From Escherichia phage Ec_Makalu_002, in sequence record MN709127.1: a DNA stretch of 64,000 nucleotides; one strand, given 5' to 3'. The notes beneath the pieces were generated by a model. That model was not told the origin of the DNA. It ran no database searches and saw only the letters and a list, made by a program, of their open reading frames with translations. Made by a program: the position numbers and the translations under genes. Position 1 is the stretch's first letter; each line of letters begins with the position of its first letter. Below, in pieces: positions 4,114 through 52,414 of the stretch.

Positions 4114-4608
4114 TTATTTTACCAGTTCTGCTAATTCTTTTTCTTTAGCTTCCAGTTCAGCCTTAAGCTGTTTAATCTCTTGTCGCTTCTTATTAGCGGC
4201 TTCCTGCTTACTATTTCGGATAATCTGATCTAGATACAACTCCCAATCCTGAATATTTTTGATAATATAACCGTCAACATTAATTGGTTGGATATTTAGT
4301 ACAGCTTCCAGTTTAGTCGCAAAAACTTTAATTGCTGGGGTGAAGTATTCATATTCGTTATCTTCAAACCAATAACCTAGACTTGCATTATCAATACGAA
4401 GACGAAGTTCAAGATCAAGGTCTTTATCTTCGGTGTATAGGTCTTTTACACCCCCCATCGAACCAACAACAACTTTAAAACGAATTTTATCAACACCACC
4501 AAACACATCAGTAAGGATACCAGCAATTGAACTATTAGCGCAAGATTGGTCGCTGAATGCGTCAAGGTTTTCTTTAGTTACAGTATACCAAACATCTTGT
4601 ACCCACAT
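4114..4608 (-). CDS. hypothetical protein with C-terminal coiled coil
   Basis: 164 aa; C-terminus KKRQEIKQLKAELEAKEKELAELVK. Confidence 0.5.
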   Translation of the reverse strand: MWVQDVWYTVTKENLDAFSDQSCANSSIAGILTDVFGGVDKIRFKVVVGSMGGVKDLYTEDKDLDLELRLRIDNASLGYWFEDNEYEYFTPAIKVFATKLEAVLNIQPINVDGYIIKNIQDWELYLDQIIRNSKQEAANKKRQEIKQLKAELEAKEKELAELVK

Positions 4609-4662
4609 AATATAATCCTCTCGTTGTTAAGTGGGAGTATTATAGCATACTCCCTTCGCATG

Positions 4663-5841
4663 TCAAGCACGAACTTTTTTCTTTACTGCTTTCACCTTCT
4701 GGCGAATTGCTCGAATCGCTTCGATCTCTTTTTCAGTCTCTTTAACAATTTCTTTGCGATTCTGAATATCTGTATCGAGATTATCATCAAGTTTAGGCAG
4801 CACGTCAATCAAGAACTTTTTAAAGTCTTTCAGGTTTCGGATAACCGCACCTTCACCCATTACCGCCACCCCTACACCATCCGGCAGATCACCAAACAGC
4901 TTAACCAGTTCAGATAGATGATCATGATCCTCTAGTGCTTCTTCCGGTTCAGATGGCAGTTCAACAAAGTTATAACGTTCATCATTGCTGATCAGATGAT
5001 ACCAGCAAAGCCCGAAAGATTTAGGAGTATATTCTACACCATCAACTTCAACCGCGTCAACACTTCCGAAAGGATCTACTTTAGTTACCTTAAATCCATG
5101 TTCCAGCTTTTGAACAATTTCAATAACATGGCTGGATACGGTTTCAGTGTTAAACCAATGAGGCAAATTATGCTGATTTGGCTTGTAGCGTTCGCCTACT
5201 TTAAATCGCTGACCTTCCGCTTGCATAGAATGAAATTGATGGTTGGTGATTTCCGCGAAGTATTCAAATTCGCCACCGTCAAACACACAAGCCCATTGAT
5301 CACAAAAACGATCTGCCTTAACGGTTTCACCTTTCGCGGTGATCATGGTAGCTGATCCGTGCAATTCTTCTTCAACCAAAAAGCCATATTCGACAAAATC
5401 AGCAAGTTTCATGGCTTCTTTGTGTTCTGGGTCATGCTCTCCCCAGAATCGCTTAAATTCTTGCAAACCTTCTGGGGTAAACGAATAACATTTACCTTTT
5501 TCAAAGTAAGTCGGCATTGCATCCTCTTTCTTGTTCATCGCTTCGTATGCCTCTTTTGAGATACGTTTAAAGTATTTGCGCTCATTGTGCATAATCATAG
5601 TAGACCAATAATAAACGATATCCTCAGCGGAATAAACTACATCTCCAGCTTCAATAGTAATAACATGACCGTGGTCATCTTTTTCTAATACTTTAAAGCC
5701 CTTTTCTACGATTTCAGCAACTCGAATATGACCACGGCGCGAAGCATCGGTCAGAATAATTGAATAGCGAGAAAAGTCTAGAAACTCATCTTTACCGCCT
5801 TCACGGAATGCATAGTAATGACCTTCAAAGAATTTAGCCAT
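4663..5841 (-). CDS. hypothetical protein, member of a tandem paralog family (two copies of the repeat domain)
   Basis: 392 aa; shares NGFKVL..VD..G and NERKYFKRI(S/T)K motifs with the ORFs at 5898-6482 and 6491-6811. Confidence 0.55.
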   Translation of the reverse strand: MAKFFEGHYYAFREGGKDEFLDFSRYSIILTDASRRGHIRVAEIVEKGFKVLEKDDHGHVITIEAGDVVYSAEDIVYYWSTMIMHNERKYFKRISKEAYEAMNKKEDAMPTYFEKGKCYSFTPEGLQEFKRFWGEHDPEHKEAMKLADFVEYGFLVEEELHGSATMITAKGETVKADRFCDQWACVFDGGEFEYFAEITNHQFHSMQAEGQRFKVGERYKPNQHNLPHWFNTETVSSHVIEIVQKLEHGFKVTKVDPFGSVDAVEVDGVEYTPKSFGLCWYHLISNDERYNFVELPSEPEEALEDHDHLSELVKLFGDLPDGVGVAVMGEGAVIRNLKDFKKFLIDVLPKLDDNLDTDIQNRKEIVKETEKEIEAIRAIRQKVKAVKKKVRA

Positions 5842-5897
5842 AATATAATCCTCTCGTTGTTTAGATGGGAGTATCTTACTACTCCCGTTTCATCATG

Positions 5898-6482
5898 TCA
5901 AGCGTTAAATGACTTTTTAATCTCTTTCAGTTCTTCCACTTTCTCGGCGCTGAATTTAGCGTAGGTATCATGTCGAATAATTTCACTTTCAAGAAAGGTT
6001 TCCAGTCGAGATCTATTTTCAATAAGGAACTCTTTCAGGTCTTCCGCGTTCTTGACAAAGATTTTATTGTCGGTAATGTCATCTTCAATCGCAAAGGAGA
6101 TAGAGCGAACTTTACCAAACAAGTTAATCAGATCTTCCAGAGATTCTTCTTTCTTAACTGGCTTCATTTCTTCAAACTGCTTTTTAGTGATGCGTTTAAA
6201 GTATTTGCGCTCGTTTGCAGCAATCAGAACAGATGCACCTTCATACCCATGAGTTTCTACCAGATACACACGCCCCATCGCATCAACAGTGAGAACTTTA
6301 AAGCCGTTACAAAGCACGTCATACAAGAACTTATTATGTTGCGGACATCGTTTGATAAATTCTGCGGCTGTTTCTGCACTACGGAAAGTGTAATAACGAC
6401 CTCGTTCAAAAACAGCATCATTTGAAGACTTAGCCGGATACAATTTATACGTTTTCTGTACCATAATATAATCCTCTATCAT
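5898..6482 (-). CDS. hypothetical protein, paralog family member
   Basis: 194 aa; CNGFKVLTVDAMGRVY and ANERKYFKRITKKQFEEM shared with neighbours; likely true start is the second Met. Confidence 0.55.
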   Translation of the reverse strand: MIEDYIMVQKTYKLYPAKSSNDAVFERGRYYTFRSAETAAEFIKRCPQHNKFLYDVLCNGFKVLTVDAMGRVYLVETHGYEGASVLIAANERKYFKRITKKQFEEMKPVKKEESLEDLINLFGKVRSISFAIEDDITDNKIFVKNAEDLKEFLIENRSRLETFLESEIIRHDTYAKFSAEKVEELKEIKKSFNA

Positions 6483-6490
6483 TTCACTAA

Positions 6491-6811
6491 TTAAACAGCA
6501 CGGAACAGAATGCGCTCACACGGAAGCAGCATAAATTCCCAACGCGGGTCAAAGTCTTTAGCGGTGTATGTTTTCCCATCAACCGCTATTTCACTTACAT
6601 AACCAACAGGTGACACTTTAAGAACAGTAAACCCATTCTTGATGACTTCGTAGGTATCTTTCACCCCTTCGTATTCATCATCTAAGAAGTCTTTATGTGC
6701 TTGCTCAGATTTAAAAACATAGGCCACACCGGATTTAAACATCTTACGCATTGTTGATTCTCCTTCTTGATTAGATGGGAGTATTTTACTACTCCCATTT
6801 CTTATTGTCAA
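6491..6811 (-). CDS. hypothetical protein, paralog family member (true start probably MRKMF, near 6751)
   Basis: NGFTVLKVSPVGYV motif; the 5' extension in the ORF track overlaps a promoter palindrome. Confidence 0.5.
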   Translation of the reverse strand: MTIRNGSSKILPSNQEGESTMRKMFKSGVAYVFKSEQAHKDFLDDEYEGVKDTYEVIKNGFTVLKVSPVGYVSEIAVDGKTYTAKDFDPRWEFMLLPCERILFRAV

Positions 6812-9973: not shown

Positions 9974-10044
9974 AATATAATCCTCACATCGTTCATTTGA
10001 TGCGGCTATTATAGGATAACCGCATTTTCATGTCAACTGTTTTT

Positions 10045-10649: not shown

Positions 10650-10715
10650 CTCCTTAAGAAAGTGTGTTTCGTTTTGATGTGTGTAGTATAGGGGATCGGC
10701 GATCCCCTGTCAACA
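10650..10715 (-). promoter_or_regulatory. sigma70-like early promoter with GATC palindrome in spacer, plus conserved leader
   Basis: Reverse complement: TTGACA-ggggatcgccgatcccct-ATACTA ... catcaaaacgaaacacac ... GGAGAATCAAA-ATG. Confidence 0.55.
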
Positions 10716-12968: not shown

Positions 12969-13069
12969 CTTTGATTCTCCTTAGTTGGTATGTGTGCATT
13001 ATAGCACTATGATTTTCATTGTCAACAACTAAAAACAAAAAAGGCTACCCCGAAGGATAGCCCATAAAA

Positions 13070-13906: not shown

Positions 13907-14128
13907 TTAGATGATCTCAGCTTCACCATTCAGGAAGAAAGACCAAGTTTTGTTTGGGTAACGACGCGCCCATGATTCGGCGGTTTTAACACCAGCTTCG
14001 AACAATTGACGGCTGGTTACTTTAGCCATACCATCTTCGATGGCAACGTTTTCAATAATCATCGGGTACTTAGCGCCACGCATGAAACCGAAGCCAGCGG
14101 AAGATTTGATAATTTTAACAGTTGCCAT
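13907..14128 (-). CDS. hypothetical protein
   Basis: 73 aa; promoter/leader cassette upstream (14130-14210). Confidence 0.4.
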   Translation of the reverse strand: MATVKIIKSSAGFGFMRGAKYPMIIENVAIEDGMAKVTSRQLFEAGVKTAESWARRYPNKTWSFFLNGEAEII

Positions 14129-14217
14129 TTTTGATTCTCCTAGAAAGTGTATCTCGTTTCGATGGGTGTATTATGCAATAACACCGGATCGCTGTCAACA
14201 CTTTCTAAGAAAATTTT

Positions 14218-14502
14218 TTAAATTAATCGAAGATAGCCCAGAATTTCAGCACCTTTAGCCAGACCTAAAACTTCCCAATCAAGGTCGCCGTAGTCATAAT
14301 TTGCAACCATCAGTTCACCATTTTTCATGCAGCAATCATGAGAGAAAATTTGCCCTGCATAAACTACGATAGTAATAAACTTTCCTGATTCTGGCGGTGT
14401 GGAAGACAAAGCGACCATATGACCATTCAGCTTAGTCACCAGTGACGGAACAATAAAATTCGGGCTTACCTGAATGCCGTTAAATTCGTTTGTGTCTTTC
14501 AT
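14218..14502 (-). CDS. hypothetical protein
   Basis: 94 aa ORF. Confidence 0.4.
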   Translation of the reverse strand: MKDTNEFNGIQVSPNFIVPSLVTKLNGHMVALSSTPPESGKFITIVVYAGQIFSHDCCMKNGELMVANYDYGDLDWEVLGLAKGAEILGYLRLI

Positions 14503-14849
14503 GCCATACCCCTTAAAACACTAATAGCATAATCATGCTGGTTATTCATAATATCAATTGCATTGTGATAACGAGCTAAACCATCAAGGATAAATTCTTG
14601 TTTATCTTGTTTCAGCTTAGTATCACGCGCAGCCATAAGAGCATCGAGAACAGGTCCAAAGTGATTGTCCAATTCATCTTCGGTTGCAATGTTTCCTATT
14701 GCCTCGTCGATCCGTGATTCTAATGCTTGCTTTTCGTTGATCACTTGCTGGGTATATTCCAGAACATCAAGAATATCGCGGGTAACGTCGCCATGATAAG
14801 GTATTCCCGCATGAAGATGATCAATTAATCGCTGAATATCAATGTTCAA
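14499..14849 (-). CDS. hypothetical protein
   Basis: 116 aa ORF, start overlaps upstream stop. Confidence 0.45.
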   Translation of the reverse strand: MNIDIQRLIDHLHAGIPYHGDVTRDILDVLEYTQQVINEKQALESRIDEAIGNIATEDELDNHFGPVLDALMAARDTKLKQDKQEFILDGLARYHNAIDIMNNQHDYAISVLRGMA

Positions 14850-15184
14850 TTGTAGCCCTCCTCTGAAAGTACATCCCAGATAATCGGATCAAGGTGCATT
14901 AAATTCCACATAATAGAGTCATAACTACCGGAGCCATGAGTAAAAATTACATCACACTGGCGATAGGTCTTATGAAAATCGGTTGCACTCTTTGCATGAA
15001 TAGGCATATCGTCACCAGAAAGCACCAGACATTTAAGAATCATGATTCTGTTAGCGGATGGCGCGCCTTTAGTTGCTTCGGCGTATCTTTCGATGATCCG
15101 TTTCGCCTTTTCTTCGGTGATACGTCCAGACCAAATCCGGTTTCGGTATTGATTCATAATAATTTCAATCACATCATTTTGCAT
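14846..15184 (-). CDS. hypothetical protein
   Basis: 112 aa ORF. Confidence 0.45.
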   Translation of the reverse strand: MQNDVIEIIMNQYRNRIWSGRITEEKAKRIIERYAEATKGAPSANRIMILKCLVLSGDDMPIHAKSATDFHKTYRQCDVIFTHGSGSYDSIMWNLMHLDPIIWDVLSEEGYN

Positions 15185-15383
15185 TCTTTACAGTCTCCAT
15201 AATTGTTTTGTAAGCCAGTTTAAGATGATCACCGAAAAACTTTGCGGTGTTACCTTTCGGATCGCGAAGCATGGTTTCTACGATCTCATCGGCAGTAACA
15301 ATTTCTCCTTTCTTTGCTGCATGTTCTACCATATACTTCAAAGTTTCTTCGGAAGCAAGTGCTGCGGCTACTGGATTAATCAT
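15174..15383 (-). CDS. hypothetical protein
   Basis: 69 aa ORF with promoter/leader cassette upstream. Confidence 0.4.
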   Translation of the reverse strand: MINPVAAALASEETLKYMVEHAAKKGEIVTADEIVETMLRDPKGNTAKFFGDHLKLAYKTIMETVKNAK

Positions 15384-15445
15384 TTTGATTCTCCTTTGTT
15401 GTCGATGTGTGCATTATGCTATACTATATTCCGGTTGTCAACACC

Positions 15446-15478
15446 TAAAAACGAAAAAGCCACCCTTTCGGATGGCTT
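15446..15478 (-). terminator. rho-independent terminator
   Basis: Hairpin agccatcc-gaaa-gggtggct followed by UUUUUCGUUUUU on the minus-strand transcript. Confidence 0.6.
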
Positions 15479-15711
15479 TTGATTATATTTTATTCACGTC
15501 CATTTGTATAGTAGTGTTTGAATCGACCTTTGCTAAACTAGTTAAACATAGTAACCAATTCACCATCCCTTTCCAATGATAACCCTTCCTCGTCTTAGAC
15601 GGGTCTTCCGATTCGGCAGTAATTGAACACGCGAAAGTATGAGGAAGCCAAATAGTTGTGTTAATGCTAGTATTCTTTTACTTCTGGTATGCATCCACCC
15701 TGTGACTAACA

Positions 15712-16209
15712 TTAAGCTAGTCGAGTGAGTTTATAAATTGTTTTAAAGCATAGAATTTTGATATCGTCTAAAACGCTCTGTAACGAGCTATCAACATCAT
15801 TATAAATCTCACTAGCCATTTGCGTTAACTCTTGCAAATAGGCAATTTCGCTAATCTCCTTGCGGACGACCAACGTTGGCTGATAACGACCAGTGATCCC
15901 AATATTGGTTTCAGTGAAATTATCAACCAATTCTTGCATTTCAAGATAGAACTCTTCTAGAGCCTTATGTTTTGCATAAGATCCAGGACCAGTTACCCCA
16001 AAATGCGCAGAATGCATATAAGTAACACTCATCAGACATTCACCGATAAAGCGGTCAACTTTATTAGCTTTCCCATCTTCGGACGTCTTTCGAAAATCAC
16101 TGAATTTCATGTTCTCGATTCTCCACATTATGCAGCATAACAAATTGGTTTGCGGCATATTCCCCCATAATAAAACACTGCTTAGAATCCATACATTTAC
16201 TACGAGCAT
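15712..16209 (-). CDS. hypothetical protein (probable true start MKFSDF near 16110); position matches T4 rI.-1
   Basis: ORF-track N-terminus overlaps the upstream gene; internal Met preceded by GAGAATCGAGAAC. Confidence 0.45.
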   Translation of the reverse strand: MLVVNVWILSSVLLWGNMPQTNLLCCIMWRIENMKFSDFRKTSEDGKANKVDRFIGECLMSVTYMHSAHFGVTGPGSYAKHKALEEFYLEMQELVDNFTETNIGITGRYQPTLVVRKEISEIAYLQELTQMASEIYNDVDSSLQSVLDDIKILCFKTIYKLTRLA

Positions 16210-16399
16210 ACATCTTCATAATATGGGCATGAAACTTCTGGCTGGTTTCAATGGAAGGTGATATTTTGTTTACATATACTATCATTGCACCGTCGAAATA
16301 ATCAGTAAAGTCACCAGTTGGATCATATTGATCAGCACTGACACTTCCGACCGCAGTCAAGCATATTGCCGCTGTTAGAGTTTTACGAATAAATGACAT
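16097..16399 (-). CDS. rI: secreted small protein, RI (lysis-inhibition antiholin)-like
   Basis: N-terminal signal/anchor MSFIRKTLTAAICLTAVGSVSA; Cys pair in periplasmic domain; sits directly downstream of tk as rI does in T4. Confidence 0.4.
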   Translation of the reverse strand: MSFIRKTLTAAICLTAVGSVSADQYDPTGDFTDYFDGAMIVYVNKISPSIETSQKFHAHIMKMYARSKCMDSKQCFIMGEYAANQFVMLHNVENREHEIQ

Positions 16400-16467
16400 A
16401 AGTCATTCCCCCAGATTTAAAATATTCAGTTATATTTATAATCTGGGGCTTTATTTATGATTAACTC

Positions 16468-17064
16468 TTAGTTGGTAGTGCCATCAATAAAATGTTTACG
16501 GCACACAGAGACATATTTATCCTCTGCACCAACTTCTATTTGAGCACCATCGCGAATAACATTACCCTCTTTATCTACACGAAGGACCATTGTTGCTTTC
16601 TTGCCACAATGACAAATACCCTTCATTTCGACCAGTTTATCAGCAAATGCCATCAATGCAGCAGATCCTTCAAATAGATTGCCCTGAAAGTCAGTGCGAA
16701 GACCATAACACAGGACAGGGATATTTGCATCATCAACAAGCGCACACAAGCCTAAAACATGCTCTTTAGTCATAAATTGGGCTTCGTCTACAAAAACTGC
16801 ATCTGGACGCCATCGATCCGGTCTACGCTTACCTAACGATTCACGATAAACCAAGTCGAAAAGATCATCCGATTCAGTGAAGGTGATCGCTGGAGCACTT
16901 AGGCCAATTCGGGAAACAACTTCACTTTCTGAATCTCGATTATCAATCGCTGGCTTAAGAATTAATACTCGCATATCACGTTCGGTATAGTTATAAGCAC
17001 TTTGTAACAGGGAAGTTGATTTGCCAGCGTTCATAGATGCATAGTAGAAATATAATTGCGCCAT
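16468..17064 (-). CDS. tk: thymidine kinase
   Basis: 198 aa; P-loop SMNAGKST; zinc-ribbon cysteines CHCGKKA...C near C-terminus. Confidence 0.9.
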   Translation of the reverse strand: MAQLYFYYASMNAGKSTSLLQSAYNYTERDMRVLILKPAIDNRDSESEVVSRIGLSAPAITFTESDDLFDLVYRESLGKRRPDRWRPDAVFVDEAQFMTKEHVLGLCALVDDANIPVLCYGLRTDFQGNLFEGSAALMAFADKLVEMKGICHCGKKATMVLRVDKEGNVIRDGAQIEVGAEDKYVSVCRKHFIDGTTN

Positions 17065-17357
17065 TAATTAATCTCCAAAAATCCAGCAAGACCTAAGCCG
17101 ATATAAGTCCAAATACAAAGTAAAAAGAAGCAAACACCCATAACAAAGATAAATCCGCGTAGTGTCTTTGGATAACCTACCCAATATTCCCGACCATCTT
17201 CTAACCGGATCAGCTTATTTCCTTGAGAGTCCATATCAATTACAACATGTTTATTTCTGGATTGTAAAAGATATTGCTTGACAATCTCAATACCCGCCAT
17301 AATAACAATAACGAAATTGAAAGTCCACATAACAAGGTTAATGATAGTCTCAAACAT
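17064..17357 (-). CDS. membrane protein (two or more TM helices)
   Basis: 97 aa; hydrophobic N- and C-terminal segments. Confidence 0.45.
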   Translation of the reverse strand: MFETIINLVMWTFNFVIVIMAGIEIVKQYLLQSRNKHVVIDMDSQGNKLIRLEDGREYWVGYPKTLRGFIFVMGVCFFLLCIWTYIGLGLAGFLEIN

Positions 17358-17592
17358 TTTCTATCACCTCCACCCAATCCGGTGTTTCTTGAAACACTCC
17401 TTCGCCTTCATGGTGAATACATCCTTTGTTGCTGCAATACATCCACCAATCCCACATTCCCCACGGTAAACGCTGCATATCGTCGTTACAGCAAGTGAAG
17501 ATGATAGGCCAACCACATCTAACACATCGGCAGTTTTCCTTCATGTGAGCGGTATTAGGCTTCTTCATAGATGACTCCAATATAATCGACAT
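17350..17592 (-). CDS. Cys-rich small protein (zinc-finger-like)
   Basis: 80 aa; CRCVRCGW...CCND...CSNKGC. Confidence 0.4.
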   Translation of the reverse strand: MSIILESSMKKPNTAHMKENCRCVRCGWPIIFTCCNDDMQRLPWGMWDWWMYCSNKGCIHHEGEGVFQETPDWVEVIENV

Positions 17593-17795
17593 TTACATGT
17601 AGGGCAATGCGGTTCTTTAATATAATACCCGTCTGTCTTTGGAACACTAACAGGAGCGGTTTTTATATTGTATTCAGTGAAACAACGAAAACAAGTTACG
17701 TTTTCTACAGACTGACGTTTAACCCAATCGCCGGAATATAGATCATTTTTATTTGCCATATTCAACCACCACAATATTGATATCTGGAGTAGCAA
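17565..17795 (-). CDS. Cys-rich small protein (zinc-ribbon-like)
   Basis: 76 aa; CFRC...CPTCKC. Confidence 0.4.
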   Translation of the reverse strand: MLLQISILWWLNMANKNDLYSGDWVKRQSVENVTCFRCFTEYNIKTAPVSVPKTDGYYIKEPHCPTCKCRLYWSHL

Positions 17796-27542: not shown

Positions 27543-27701
27543 TTATTTGCTAATCGCTAAACCTAATCCGAAGAGAGCACCAGACGCTACAGTATACCCG
27601 AAAGTTTCAAAGGCAGTCAAGATATCCAACCCACCAGCTAACAGAGTTGCAGTAAACAGAGTACCAGCTACGAACATAAAAGTTTTACCGATAAATTTCA
27701 T
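27543..27701 (-). CDS. small hydrophobic peptide (52 aa), below ORF-track size cut-off
   Basis: Hand translation MKFIGKTFMFVAGTLFTATLLAGGLDILTAFETFGYTVASGALFGLGLAISK; ATG follows GGAGAATCAAA RBS and promoter cassette (27700-27775). Confidence 0.4.
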   Translation of the reverse strand: MKFIGKTFMFVAGTLFTATLLAGGLDILTAFETFGYTVASGALFGLGLAISK

Positions 27702-27768
27702 TTTGATTCTCCTTTCGTTTGTTTGTTGGGGGTATCTTACTACCCCCGTTTCATGTTGTCAACTGTTT

Positions 27769-28146
27769 TTAAGAAAATTTTACTTCGTCTACAATGTCTT
27801 TCATGACATTGATTTCCATTCCGGTCAGAACACGTTGGAACATGTGCTGCACATACGCTTTCAGGTATTCATTTGATGGCTTGCTATCAAAAGTCTTTTT
27901 AGTGTAGTAGTCATCACCGAAAGCTACTGTAATTACATTTTCGTCGTCGTTCCAGGCAATATAAGCAAATTTGCCGTTATCCCAGAATCGAGCACTAATT
28001 GCTACTTTCGTTGAATCGAATCCTACTTCGCTGTGAGATTCAAGAACTACTTGCGTGCCAGTTTCTTTATGAATGTAGTAGCGGGATACTAAGTCAAAGT
28101 TACGGGTGTAGTGACATTCGAATTTATCTTTAAACATCATCATCAT
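27769..28146 (-). CDS. hypothetical protein
   Basis: 125 aa; promoter/leader cassette upstream (28140-28215). Confidence 0.45.
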   Translation of the reverse strand: MMMMFKDKFECHYTRNFDLVSRYYIHKETGTQVVLESHSEVGFDSTKVAISARFWDNGKFAYIAWNDDENVITVAFGDDYYTKKTFDSKPSNEYLKAYVQHMFQRVLTGMEINVMKDIVDEVKFS

Positions 28147-33205: not shown

Positions 33206-33213
33206 TATAAATA
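33206..33213 (+). promoter_or_regulatory. T4-type late promoter (TATAAATA) for gene 53
   Basis: TATAAATA ~35 nt upstream of the gene 53 ATG. Confidence 0.55.
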
Positions 33214-52378: not shown

Positions 52379-52414
52379 TAAATTGGGGGAGTATTCCCCC
52401 ATTTGGAGTAACAT

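Follow-up and report, generated by a model that had tools for sequence, protein, structure and literature searches.

Each of the genomes of phages RB49 and phi1 carries about 52 repeated intergenic motifs, which were named PeSLs (promoter-early stem-loops; Arbiol et al. 2010, Genome Biol Evol 2:140, PMC2839356). In a PeSL, an A/T-rich stretch that includes the stop codon of the upstream gene is combined with a consensus sigma-70 promoter, a stem-loop made of a G-run and a C-run, a Shine-Dalgarno sequence and a start codon. Five positions of the stem were published, and the overlap with the −10 box is among the two commonest (PMC2839356). A later account of RB49 and phi1 described their promoter by the formula TTGACA-N17-TATAAT and their stem by GN-loop-CN (Comeau et al. 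2014, Genome Biol Evol 6:1611, PMC4122927). Reporter assays were published for the promoters of PeSL193/192 and PeSL206/205, the latter of which showed strong activity, and for the stem-loop of RB49 PeSL211/210, which lowered expression of a downstream lacZ gene like rrnB T1 (PMC2839356). PeSLs were proposed to insulate early transcription units and to shuffle ORFans as recombination linkers, with mini-circles as intermediates (PMC2839356).

The window analysed here, a stretch of 64,000 nt from Escherichia phage Ec_Makalu_002, belongs to Krischvirus, the RB49-like T4-type coliphages, and is 98% identical to Ec_Makalu_003 and to Shigella phage SSG23. Its identity to Krischvirus genomes is 96-99%, and in the 14000-18000 stretch that was queried it is 95-97% identical to RB49, Phi1 and JSE. 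GC skew and the ORF table identify the minus strand as the coding strand in window positions 1-30000, and all features described below lie on this strand unless stated otherwise.

Palindromes around the −10 boxes of early promoters

The original prediction listed five palindromes of the form GGG(A/G)GTA...TAC(T/C)CCC, and exact matches are indeed present at 4633-4654, 5867-5886, 6777-6796, 20051-20070 and 27728-27747. With a loop of 6 nt and at most two mismatches, four matches were counted in the window versus 0.18 expected, and none of 100 dinucleotide-preserving shuffles reached four. Their association with promoters and their fixed position around the −10 box, which had both been claimed as well, were borne out: each copy has the arrangement TTGACA, 16- or 17-nt spacer, TAnnAT, and four copies show an identical offset, with the arm starting 9 nt past the −35 box. 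The −35 box is an exact TTGACA in all five copies, the −10 boxes are TATAAT, TAAGAT, TAAAAT, TAATAT and TAAGAT, and together the hexamers match the consensus at 10-12 of 12 positions. The 5′ arm lies inside the promoter spacer, and the −10 box lies in the loop and the first base or bases of the 3′ arm. This 3′ arm, (T)ACYCCC, occupies positions −7 to −1 as a C-rich discriminator and ends at about −1. It is a variant of the discriminator kept in most PeSLs (ACACCCAT or ACACACAT), which is found as TACACCC or TACTCCC and lacking any 5′ partner at window position 26218 and at positions 33213 and 131469 of the Krischvirus LF73P4 genome. The hairpin is created by the 5′ arm, which is placed in an otherwise free spacer.

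The stop codon of the upstream gene falls at the −35 box or a little ahead of it, and at 4633 and 5867 it is the TGA within TTGACA; the 5′ arm begins 8-21 nt past this stop codon. By our own count, the 20 nt upstream of the promoters contain 65-85% A+T, versus about 60% window-wide. Downstream of the stem follow an A/C-rich leader of 20-27 nt, a Shine-Dalgarno sequence (GAGG or GGAG, 5-9 nt ahead of the start codon and 20-27 nt past the stem) and an ATG. The stems comprise 7-9 bp, with RNA free energies of −12 to −14 kcal/mol and z-scores of −2.9 to −3.7.

In the focal copy, the stem-loop GGGAGTA gtaaga TACTCCC (5867-5886) has 7 bp and a 6-nt loop; the RNA fold has a value of −11.9 kcal/mol, with z = −2.9 in its 56-nt context. 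The sigma-70-type early promoter (5873-5901) consists of TTGACA at 5896-5901, a 17-nt spacer and TAAGAT at 5873-5878. The upstream ORF (5898-6482) ends with a TGA (5898-5900) within the −35 hexamer. The cassette drives a gene similar to frd.2/goF with its ATG at 5839-5841, and is orthologous to the RB49 ORF059c/frd.2 intergenic region.

The neighbouring copy at 4633-4654, GGGAGTAT gctata ATACTCCC, has 8 bp, overlaps the −10 box and drives an ORF057c-like gene (ATG 4606-4608). Its promoter (4639-4666) combines TTGACA at 4661-4666 with a 16-nt spacer and a consensus TATAAT at 4639-4644, preceded by TGc; the frd.2-like ORF upstream stops with a TGA at 4663-4665 within the −35 box. At the orthologous place, the depositors of phage GEC-3S annotated a promoter with −10 and −35 boxes. 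The copy at 6777 extends to 9 bp (AT-GGGAGTA gtaaaa TACTCCC-AT, 6775-6798) and is located between gene 49, encoding endonuclease VII, and an ORF060c-like gene (ATG 6749-6751); its promoter (6783-6811) has TTGACA at 6806-6811, a 17-nt spacer and TAAAAT at 6783-6788. In the remaining two copies pair 4 is G-C. The stem-loop GGGGGTA gtaata TACCCCC (20051-20070) drives an ORF095c-like gene upstream of regB (ATG 20023-20025) from a promoter at 20057-20085 (TTGACA 20080-20085, 17-nt spacer, TAATAT 20057-20062), and the stop codon TAG of the upstream gene (20086-20088) adjoins the −35 box. The stem-loop GGGGGTA gtaaga TACCCCC (27728-27747) drives an ORF124c-like gene upstream of dmd (ATG 27699-27701), with the promoter at 27734-27762 (TTGACA 27757-27762, 17-nt spacer, TAAGAT 27734-27739). 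The ortholog of this element is annotated as "promoter" in GEC-3S and as "terminator (ARNold)" in G37-3.

A sister copy at 25212-25233, GGGTGTAT agcata ATACACCC, has the arms GGGTGTA/TACACCC and overlaps a −10 box CATAAT (25218-25223), with the −35 box at 25241-25246. It had been absent from the original list; its pair 4 is T-A, a third compensatory state. A stem with unrelated arms, ATGCGGTTAT cctata ATAGCCGCAT (10000-10025), surrounds another −10 box and includes a T.G wobble on the sense strand. Class-1 stems are found at 968-985, 10690-10708 and 25926-25944. A sixth, half-site-like member had been suggested at 52385-52400 (GGGGGAgtatTCCCCC) on the plus strand. A hairpin of 6-7 bp does exist there, between a stop codon and the GGAG/ATG of the next gene, but we rejected it as a family member: it has different arms and the opposite strand, and neither a TTGACA nor a −10 box.

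For a census, the complete genome of Krischvirus LF73P4 was searched with a filter for promoter, Shine-Dalgarno sequence and ATG, which returned 60 sites. A G/C-rich stem lies over the −10 box at 17 sites, 12 of them with the GGGRGTA type, and between −35 and −10 at 12 sites; the other 31 promoters have no stem. The stems that sister promoters in the same phage carry between −35 and −10 are different ones, GGGGATC..GATCCCC and GGGGAG..CTCCCC.

The five sites of the window map to the RB49 intergenic regions frd.2/057c, 059c/frd.2, 49/060c, 096c/095c and 125c/124c, and promoters were annotated by the GEC-3S depositors at orthologous sites. The genome type, the intergenic place, the promoter, the A/T-rich upstream region, the stem, and the Shine-Dalgarno sequence with ATG all agree with the sequence definition of PeSLs. 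Reading the sequence directly, we found the same stem in the phi1 intergenic regions 205/204, 226/225, 227/226 and 228/227, so that the palindromes amount to a rediscovery of one PeSL subclass. The PeSLs of RB49 and phi1 share genus, intergenic anatomy and stem position with the window copies, and no essential difference was found. On sequence grounds, the five palindromes form a single sequence subfamily within the PeSL cassettes known from the literature and fall into the subclass that overlaps the −10 box. No new kind of element is added by the window.

Pairing of the arms

Conservation of the arms in related phages, on which the original prediction had staked its reading, was observed: they are invariant or wobble-compatible in RB49, Phi1, GEC-3S, JK32, LF73P4, OZ035808 and SSG23. 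Of the 58 Krischvirus records that BLAST detected in a phage collection, 56 contain the cassette around 5867 and 51 the one around 27728, taken as stretches of 61-62 nt. Such conservation alone is weak evidence, since the compared Krischvirus genomes are 90-99% identical in the stretches queried.

The A or G of the 5′ arm is always paired with the complementary T or C of the 3′ arm. This covariation was implicit in the motif notation of the original prediction, where no use was made of it. We aligned 37 distinct copies, removing the two central loop bases of copies with 8-nt loops to keep the register and counting arm columns only. In this alignment 99.6% of all cells are paired, while slid registers gave 45-74% pairing. 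Pair 4 occurs as AU (20 copies), GC (10), UA (5) and GU (2), pair 5 as GC (35) and AU (2), and pair 6 as UA (34) and UG (3). The covariation score was 0.219 compared to 0.083 in shuffles, and none of 500 shuffles reached the observed score. The compensatory arm variants are GGGAGTA/TACTCCC, GGGGGTA/TACCCCC, GGGTGTA/TACACCC and GGGGATA/TATCCCC.

The regular expression by which these copies were collected fixed GGG..TA and T[AG]..CCC, which may bias the types of mismatch that can be seen. The count was therefore repeated by a scan based on geometry only and by a metagenome scan in which pairs 4-6 were left free. Among the 131 promoter cores of the geometry-only scan the distribution is bimodal: 40 cores have seven of seven Watson-Crick pairs, seven have six of seven, and 83 of the rest have four or fewer. 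The metagenome scan yielded 21 perfect Krischvirus copies, and also other complementary arms, namely GGGCACA/TGTGCCC, GGGGAG/CTCCCC, GGGGCC/GGCCCC and GGGCGT/ACGCCC. We infer that the stem is kept for pairing in sense-strand RNA.

Imperfect stems point to the same molecule. All seven cores of the geometry-only scan with six of seven pairs have a sense-strand wobble, G.T or T.G, as the odd pair; A.C was not seen. The seven cases correspond to about six independent events, five of which are A-to-G on the sense strand. For transitions this asymmetry has a p value of about 0.016; once the G content of the sense strand is allowed for, we estimate about 0.035, in a range of about 0.02-0.04. One exception is RB49 PeSL205/204 (TGGAGTA), whose terminal pair is broken by a mismatch that is not a wobble. 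Neither a fixed duplex operator nor a cruciform would accept wobbles on one strand only, or arms that covary freely. These data favour a hairpin in sense-strand RNA (or in single-stranded DNA of the sense strand, a form that looks alike in sequence) over a sequence-specific operator. As to base composition, the sense strand is G-rich (GC skew of about 0.15), and mutational bias accounts for part of the wobble asymmetry.

Transcription start, read-through and termination

For early promoters of RB49, C was reported at −3 to −1, which fits the 5′ ends that had been mapped (Nolan 2006, PMC1524935). Since the 3′ arm ends at −1 and provides the C residues at −3 to −1, initiation at the promoter of the cassette itself is expected at the A that follows the 3′ arm, and the resulting transcript should lack the hairpin; only read-through RNA from upstream would contain it. 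We looked at how the embedded stems are distributed relative to hairpins with a T-tract. In LF73P4 such a terminator is present within 50 nt upstream of none of the 29 stem-bearing promoters, versus 9 of the 31 stem-less ones (Fisher p = 0.002). In the window, the stem-less promoters with an upstream terminator are those at 2160, 13025 and 15441. Such a complementary distribution would be expected of an embedded stem that takes the place of a terminator. Two cassettes of LF73P4, at 27817 and 123052, have a −10-embracing stem followed by a T-tract.

The hairpins of the window resemble canonical intrinsic terminators in being G/C-rich, with −12 to −14 kcal/mol, and in lying 10-20 nt past the upstream stop codon; they are mutually exclusive with hairpin-plus-T-tract terminators at the same relative place, and ARNold called one ortholog a terminator. 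They differ from them in the merely 7-9 bp of the stem and in the sense-strand tail: the tails AUCUAAAC, AUCGAAAC, ACUUAAC and AACAAAC do not form a U-tract, and our terminator scan of the window made no minus-strand call on the hairpins. For the −10-overlapping subclass it is thus doubtful that E. coli RNA polymerase would terminate efficiently by the intrinsic route. The tested RB49 cassettes 211/210 and 206/205 belong to another class, in which GGGGATC..GATCCCC between −35 and −10 is followed by a U-rich −10 box, while a U-tract does not follow the stem in the GGGRGTA subclass of the window. A terminator role of this subclass would be an extrapolation from those assays; attenuation, pausing or shielding of the upstream mRNA at its 3′ end is just as possible. 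Our literature search returned no 5′/3′ end mapping or RNA-seq for any Krischvirus. Two further roles were considered and dropped: cleavage by RegB at the GGAG of GGGAGTA, as the GGGGGTA copies have no GGAG, and processing by RNase III, as the stems are far too short.

Taken together, we favour, with a probability of roughly 60%, the view that the palindromes are a PeSL subfamily whose stem pairs in sense-strand RNA and attenuates or terminates read-through or protects the upstream 3′ end, and that they are not an operator defining a regulon. Each cassette is an intergenic unit of about 60-100 bp, running from the end of the upstream gene through the A/T-rich stretch, the near-consensus sigma-70 promoter, the G/C-rich stem-loop and the leader to the Shine-Dalgarno sequence and start codon. 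Its promoter would be used by the host RNA polymerase early in infection. The hairpin would be present solely in read-through RNA from the upstream gene, where it may attenuate or terminate transcription or shield the 3′ end of the upstream message. In this way each small early transcription unit would be insulated. Recombination between cassettes, or gene conversion, may have made the copies nearly identical, an origin that was proposed for PeSLs.

Alternative explanations and related elements

In a different reading, the −10 hairpins that lack a U-tract would be functionally separate from the PeSL stems tested as terminators and would act by a non-canonical route such as factor-dependent termination, 3′-end protection of the upstream mRNA or binding of a phage protein, and unrelated virulent phages would have come to share the design, including a CCC-AUACCAAC or CCC-AUCAAGAC leader, through convergence or horizontal transfer. 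As candidates, look-alike promoter stems that embrace the −10 box and have the same leader were detected in contigs resembling the 150-kb myoviruses of Pectobacterium and Cronobacter, Pseudomonas phage phiPMW and marine T4-like phages; a search of Rfam gave no match on the marine look-alike loci. We regard this reading as tentative and rather unlikely. Short and very stable hairpins are also familiar from phage T4: C(UUCG)G hairpins are reportedly among its stable intercistronic RNA hairpins, in work of Tuerk et al. from 1988. Like the stems described here, the T4 hairpins lie between small early cistrons and are thought to shape the 3′ ends and stability of mRNAs. They differ in having special tetraloops and in not being embedded in promoters, whereas the loop of the window stems is the −10 hexamer.

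A DNA-level signal for recombination is likewise unlikely. The palindrome would then be a cruciform or a site for a recombination protein (endonuclease VII or another factor) that promotes cassette exchange, leading to PeSL mini-circles and ORFan shuffling. Mini-circles between PeSLs were demonstrated, and the idea was raised, by Arbiol et al. 2010 (PMC2839356). One of the copies is the immediate downstream neighbour of gene 49, which encodes endonuclease VII. Moreover, at orthologous sites the 9-nt spacer beside the arms is exchanged between cassette types, and gcatgaaac, caacaaaac or cccatgatc stands next to constant arms. However, a 7-bp stem with a 6-nt loop makes a poor cruciform, and each G.T wobble on the sense strand would become an A.C mismatch in the other arm of that cruciform. 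No dedicated signal is needed for homologous recombination across a conserved cassette of about 60-100 bp (PMC2839356), and the complementary distribution with canonical terminators would be left unexplained.

The original prediction had interpreted the palindromes as a common operator of a regulon. In this case a dimeric protein of the phage or the host would bind duplex GGGRGTA-N6-TACYCCC over the −10 box and co-regulate roughly 12 promoters per genome. Operators of the LexA or lac type that overlap the −10 box are likewise inverted repeats that span about 20 bp, have their centre in the −10 region and recur at several promoters. The 7-bp inverted repeat of the window keeps a fixed offset, with the −10 box at its centre, its arms are conserved in 51-56 of 58 Krischvirus records, and Arbiol et al. 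2010 speculated that the GGGG...CCCC motif is the target of a DNA-binding protein (PMC2839356). Unlike such operators, the window arms covary: they change by compensatory pairs, with A-T, G-C and T-A at pair 4 and G-C and A-T at pair 5. Imperfect copies carry asymmetric sense-strand G.T wobbles that break the symmetry of the duplex. Sister early promoters of the same class have unrelated stems elsewhere, which leaves no single operator sequence or position, and the 3′ arm TACACCC or TACTCCC stands in promoters lacking the 5′ arm (window 26218; LF73P4 33213 and 131469). A half-site that is the same at all promoters, with symmetric tolerance for changes, was not found. The association with promoters, the place around the −10 box and the conservation of the arms thus stood, but compensatory arms, unrelated sister stems and G.T wobbles speak against a common operator, which we consider improbable.

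It is likewise improbable that the stem lacks a function and is simply carried along in a family of cassettes that multiplies by duplication and gene conversion, with selection acting on the promoter only. The copies do share far more than the arms, namely the −35 box, the spacer ATGAAAC, the leader (ATCGAAAC or ATCTAAAC) and the Shine-Dalgarno sequence, and the genomes are 90-99% identical. But the four states at pair 4 and the two at pair 5 leave no unpaired cell at these positions, pairing across the 131 promoter cores is bimodal, the spacer beside the arm diverges while the arm does not, and complementary arms of unrelated sequence occur in other phage lineages.

Very improbable, finally, is a terminator on the opposite strand, where the hairpin and a moderately U-rich tail (GUUUCAU, AUUUCUUAUU) would stop antisense transcription into the early genes: our scan called 6773-6800 terminator-like on the plus strand and the sense-strand spacer ahead of the 5′ arm is A-rich in most copies, but 5 T in 8 nt are reached by some copies only, A-rich spacers also occur in some stem-less promoters, the wobble variants are A.C mismatches on the plus strand, and GC skew and ORFs give no evidence of plus-strand promoters or genes in window 1-30000.

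Returning to the PeSL subfamily with a probable sense-strand hairpin, our analysis adds to the published description the covariation within the subfamily, the sense-strand wobble bias, which points to RNA and not to duplex DNA, and the mutual exclusion with canonical terminators. What novelty is left lies in the possible function of the subclass that lacks a U-tract and in the look-alike stems, with the same leader, in contigs related to quite different virulent phages. For annotators the element calls for caution, as the same 20 bp are a "promoter" in one GenBank record and a "terminator" in another. For the biology of these phages, PeSLs are of interest as compact promoter/terminator "linker" cassettes by which many tiny early genes are insulated, and as recombination points where ORFans are shuffled between phages.

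Promoter stems, terminators and neighbouring genes

Three early promoters of the window, at 2160, 13025 and 15441, have no internal stem, and directly upstream of each lies a canonical hairpin followed by a T-tract (terminators at 2179–2200, 13042–13063 and 15455–15480, all on the minus strand). In the complete Krischvirus genome LF73P4, upstream terminators and internal promoter stems were mutually exclusive over the whole genome. At two positions (4663–4665 and 5898–5900) the −35 hexamer TTGACA contains the TGA stop codon of the upstream gene, so that the promoter begins before the preceding reading frame has ended.

When read in antisense, the palindrome at 6777 together with its U-rich tail (6773–6800, plus strand) appeared terminator-like in a simple scan; no antisense transcription unit was evident. 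The intercistronic GGGGGAgtatTCCCCC hairpin at 52385–52400 (plus strand, about −13 kcal/mol, z = −1.5), which the original prediction had listed as a half-site-like copy, is flanked by a stop codon on one side and by the GGAG/ATG of the next gene on the other. It has no promoter and was rejected as a member of the palindrome family.

Annotation and arm length in orthologs

One orthologous element carries two different GenBank labels, being annotated as "terminator (ARNold, −13.3)" in phage G37-3 (L043, 167–188) versus "promoter/-10/-35" in GEC-3S (L032, 25419–25447). The G-run of the 5′ arm comprises six G's, not five, in the RB49 (L031) ortholog of the 27728 palindrome and in the GEC-3S ortholog of the 20051 palindrome, and this one extra G extends the spacer to 18 nt. 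The homopolymer may truly vary in length here, or the additional base may be a sequencing error.

Conserved leaders after the early promoters

The transcribed leader directly following the +1 position (ATCGAAACGAAAC..., ATACCGAAACGA..., ATCAAGAC...) is strongly conserved across cassettes that are otherwise unlike each other. As seen at 20027–20050, 25190–25211 and 10650–10684, the conserved leaders of the window are A/C-rich and poor in G. They may contribute to the homology used in recombination, or may act as a translation or stability element.

Related stems in other phage groups

In contigs related to other phage groups, too, there are sigma-70-like promoters whose −10 box is enclosed by a stem of complementary G/C arms (L071 at 8539 and 7992, L097 at 5424, L078 at 96, L100 at 2889 and 3420, and L059), and they share the leader CCC-ATACCAAC or CCC-ATCAAGAC with the window-type cassettes. 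L071 is about 72% identical to 150-kb myoviruses of Pectobacterium, Cronobacter and Klebsiella, and L097 shares about 80% identity with phages of the Pseudomonas vB_PpS_SYP/phiPMW group. Complementarity of all of the stem pairs 4–6, which were left free in the metagenome scan, was found in four independent cases versus about 0.8 expected, as estimated from the match list of that scan.

An almost unvarying sequence, TTGACAtAATCATGCGGGGGTAAGCAATTACCCCCAACCTT, occurs in many viral contigs of 34–38% GC (L003–L011, L013, L014, L016–L019, L021, L023 and L028; for example L005, 2420–2454), and its stem is nearly the same as the G-type palindrome (GGGGGTA/TACCCCC) of the window. The element is located 3′ of a membrane-protein-like ORF and precedes a family-B DNA polymerase gene by about 80–150 nt. 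A promoter, TTTACA-N17-TATAAT, comes after it, and the adjoining ORF encodes Hsp20. An Rfam search of the TTGACAtAATCATGCGGGGGTAAGCAATTACCCCCAACCTT loci gave no match. The element looks like one of the PeSL type (the promoter-early stem-loop cassette of RB49/phi1 phages), here associated with gene 43 in T4-like phages of marine origin.
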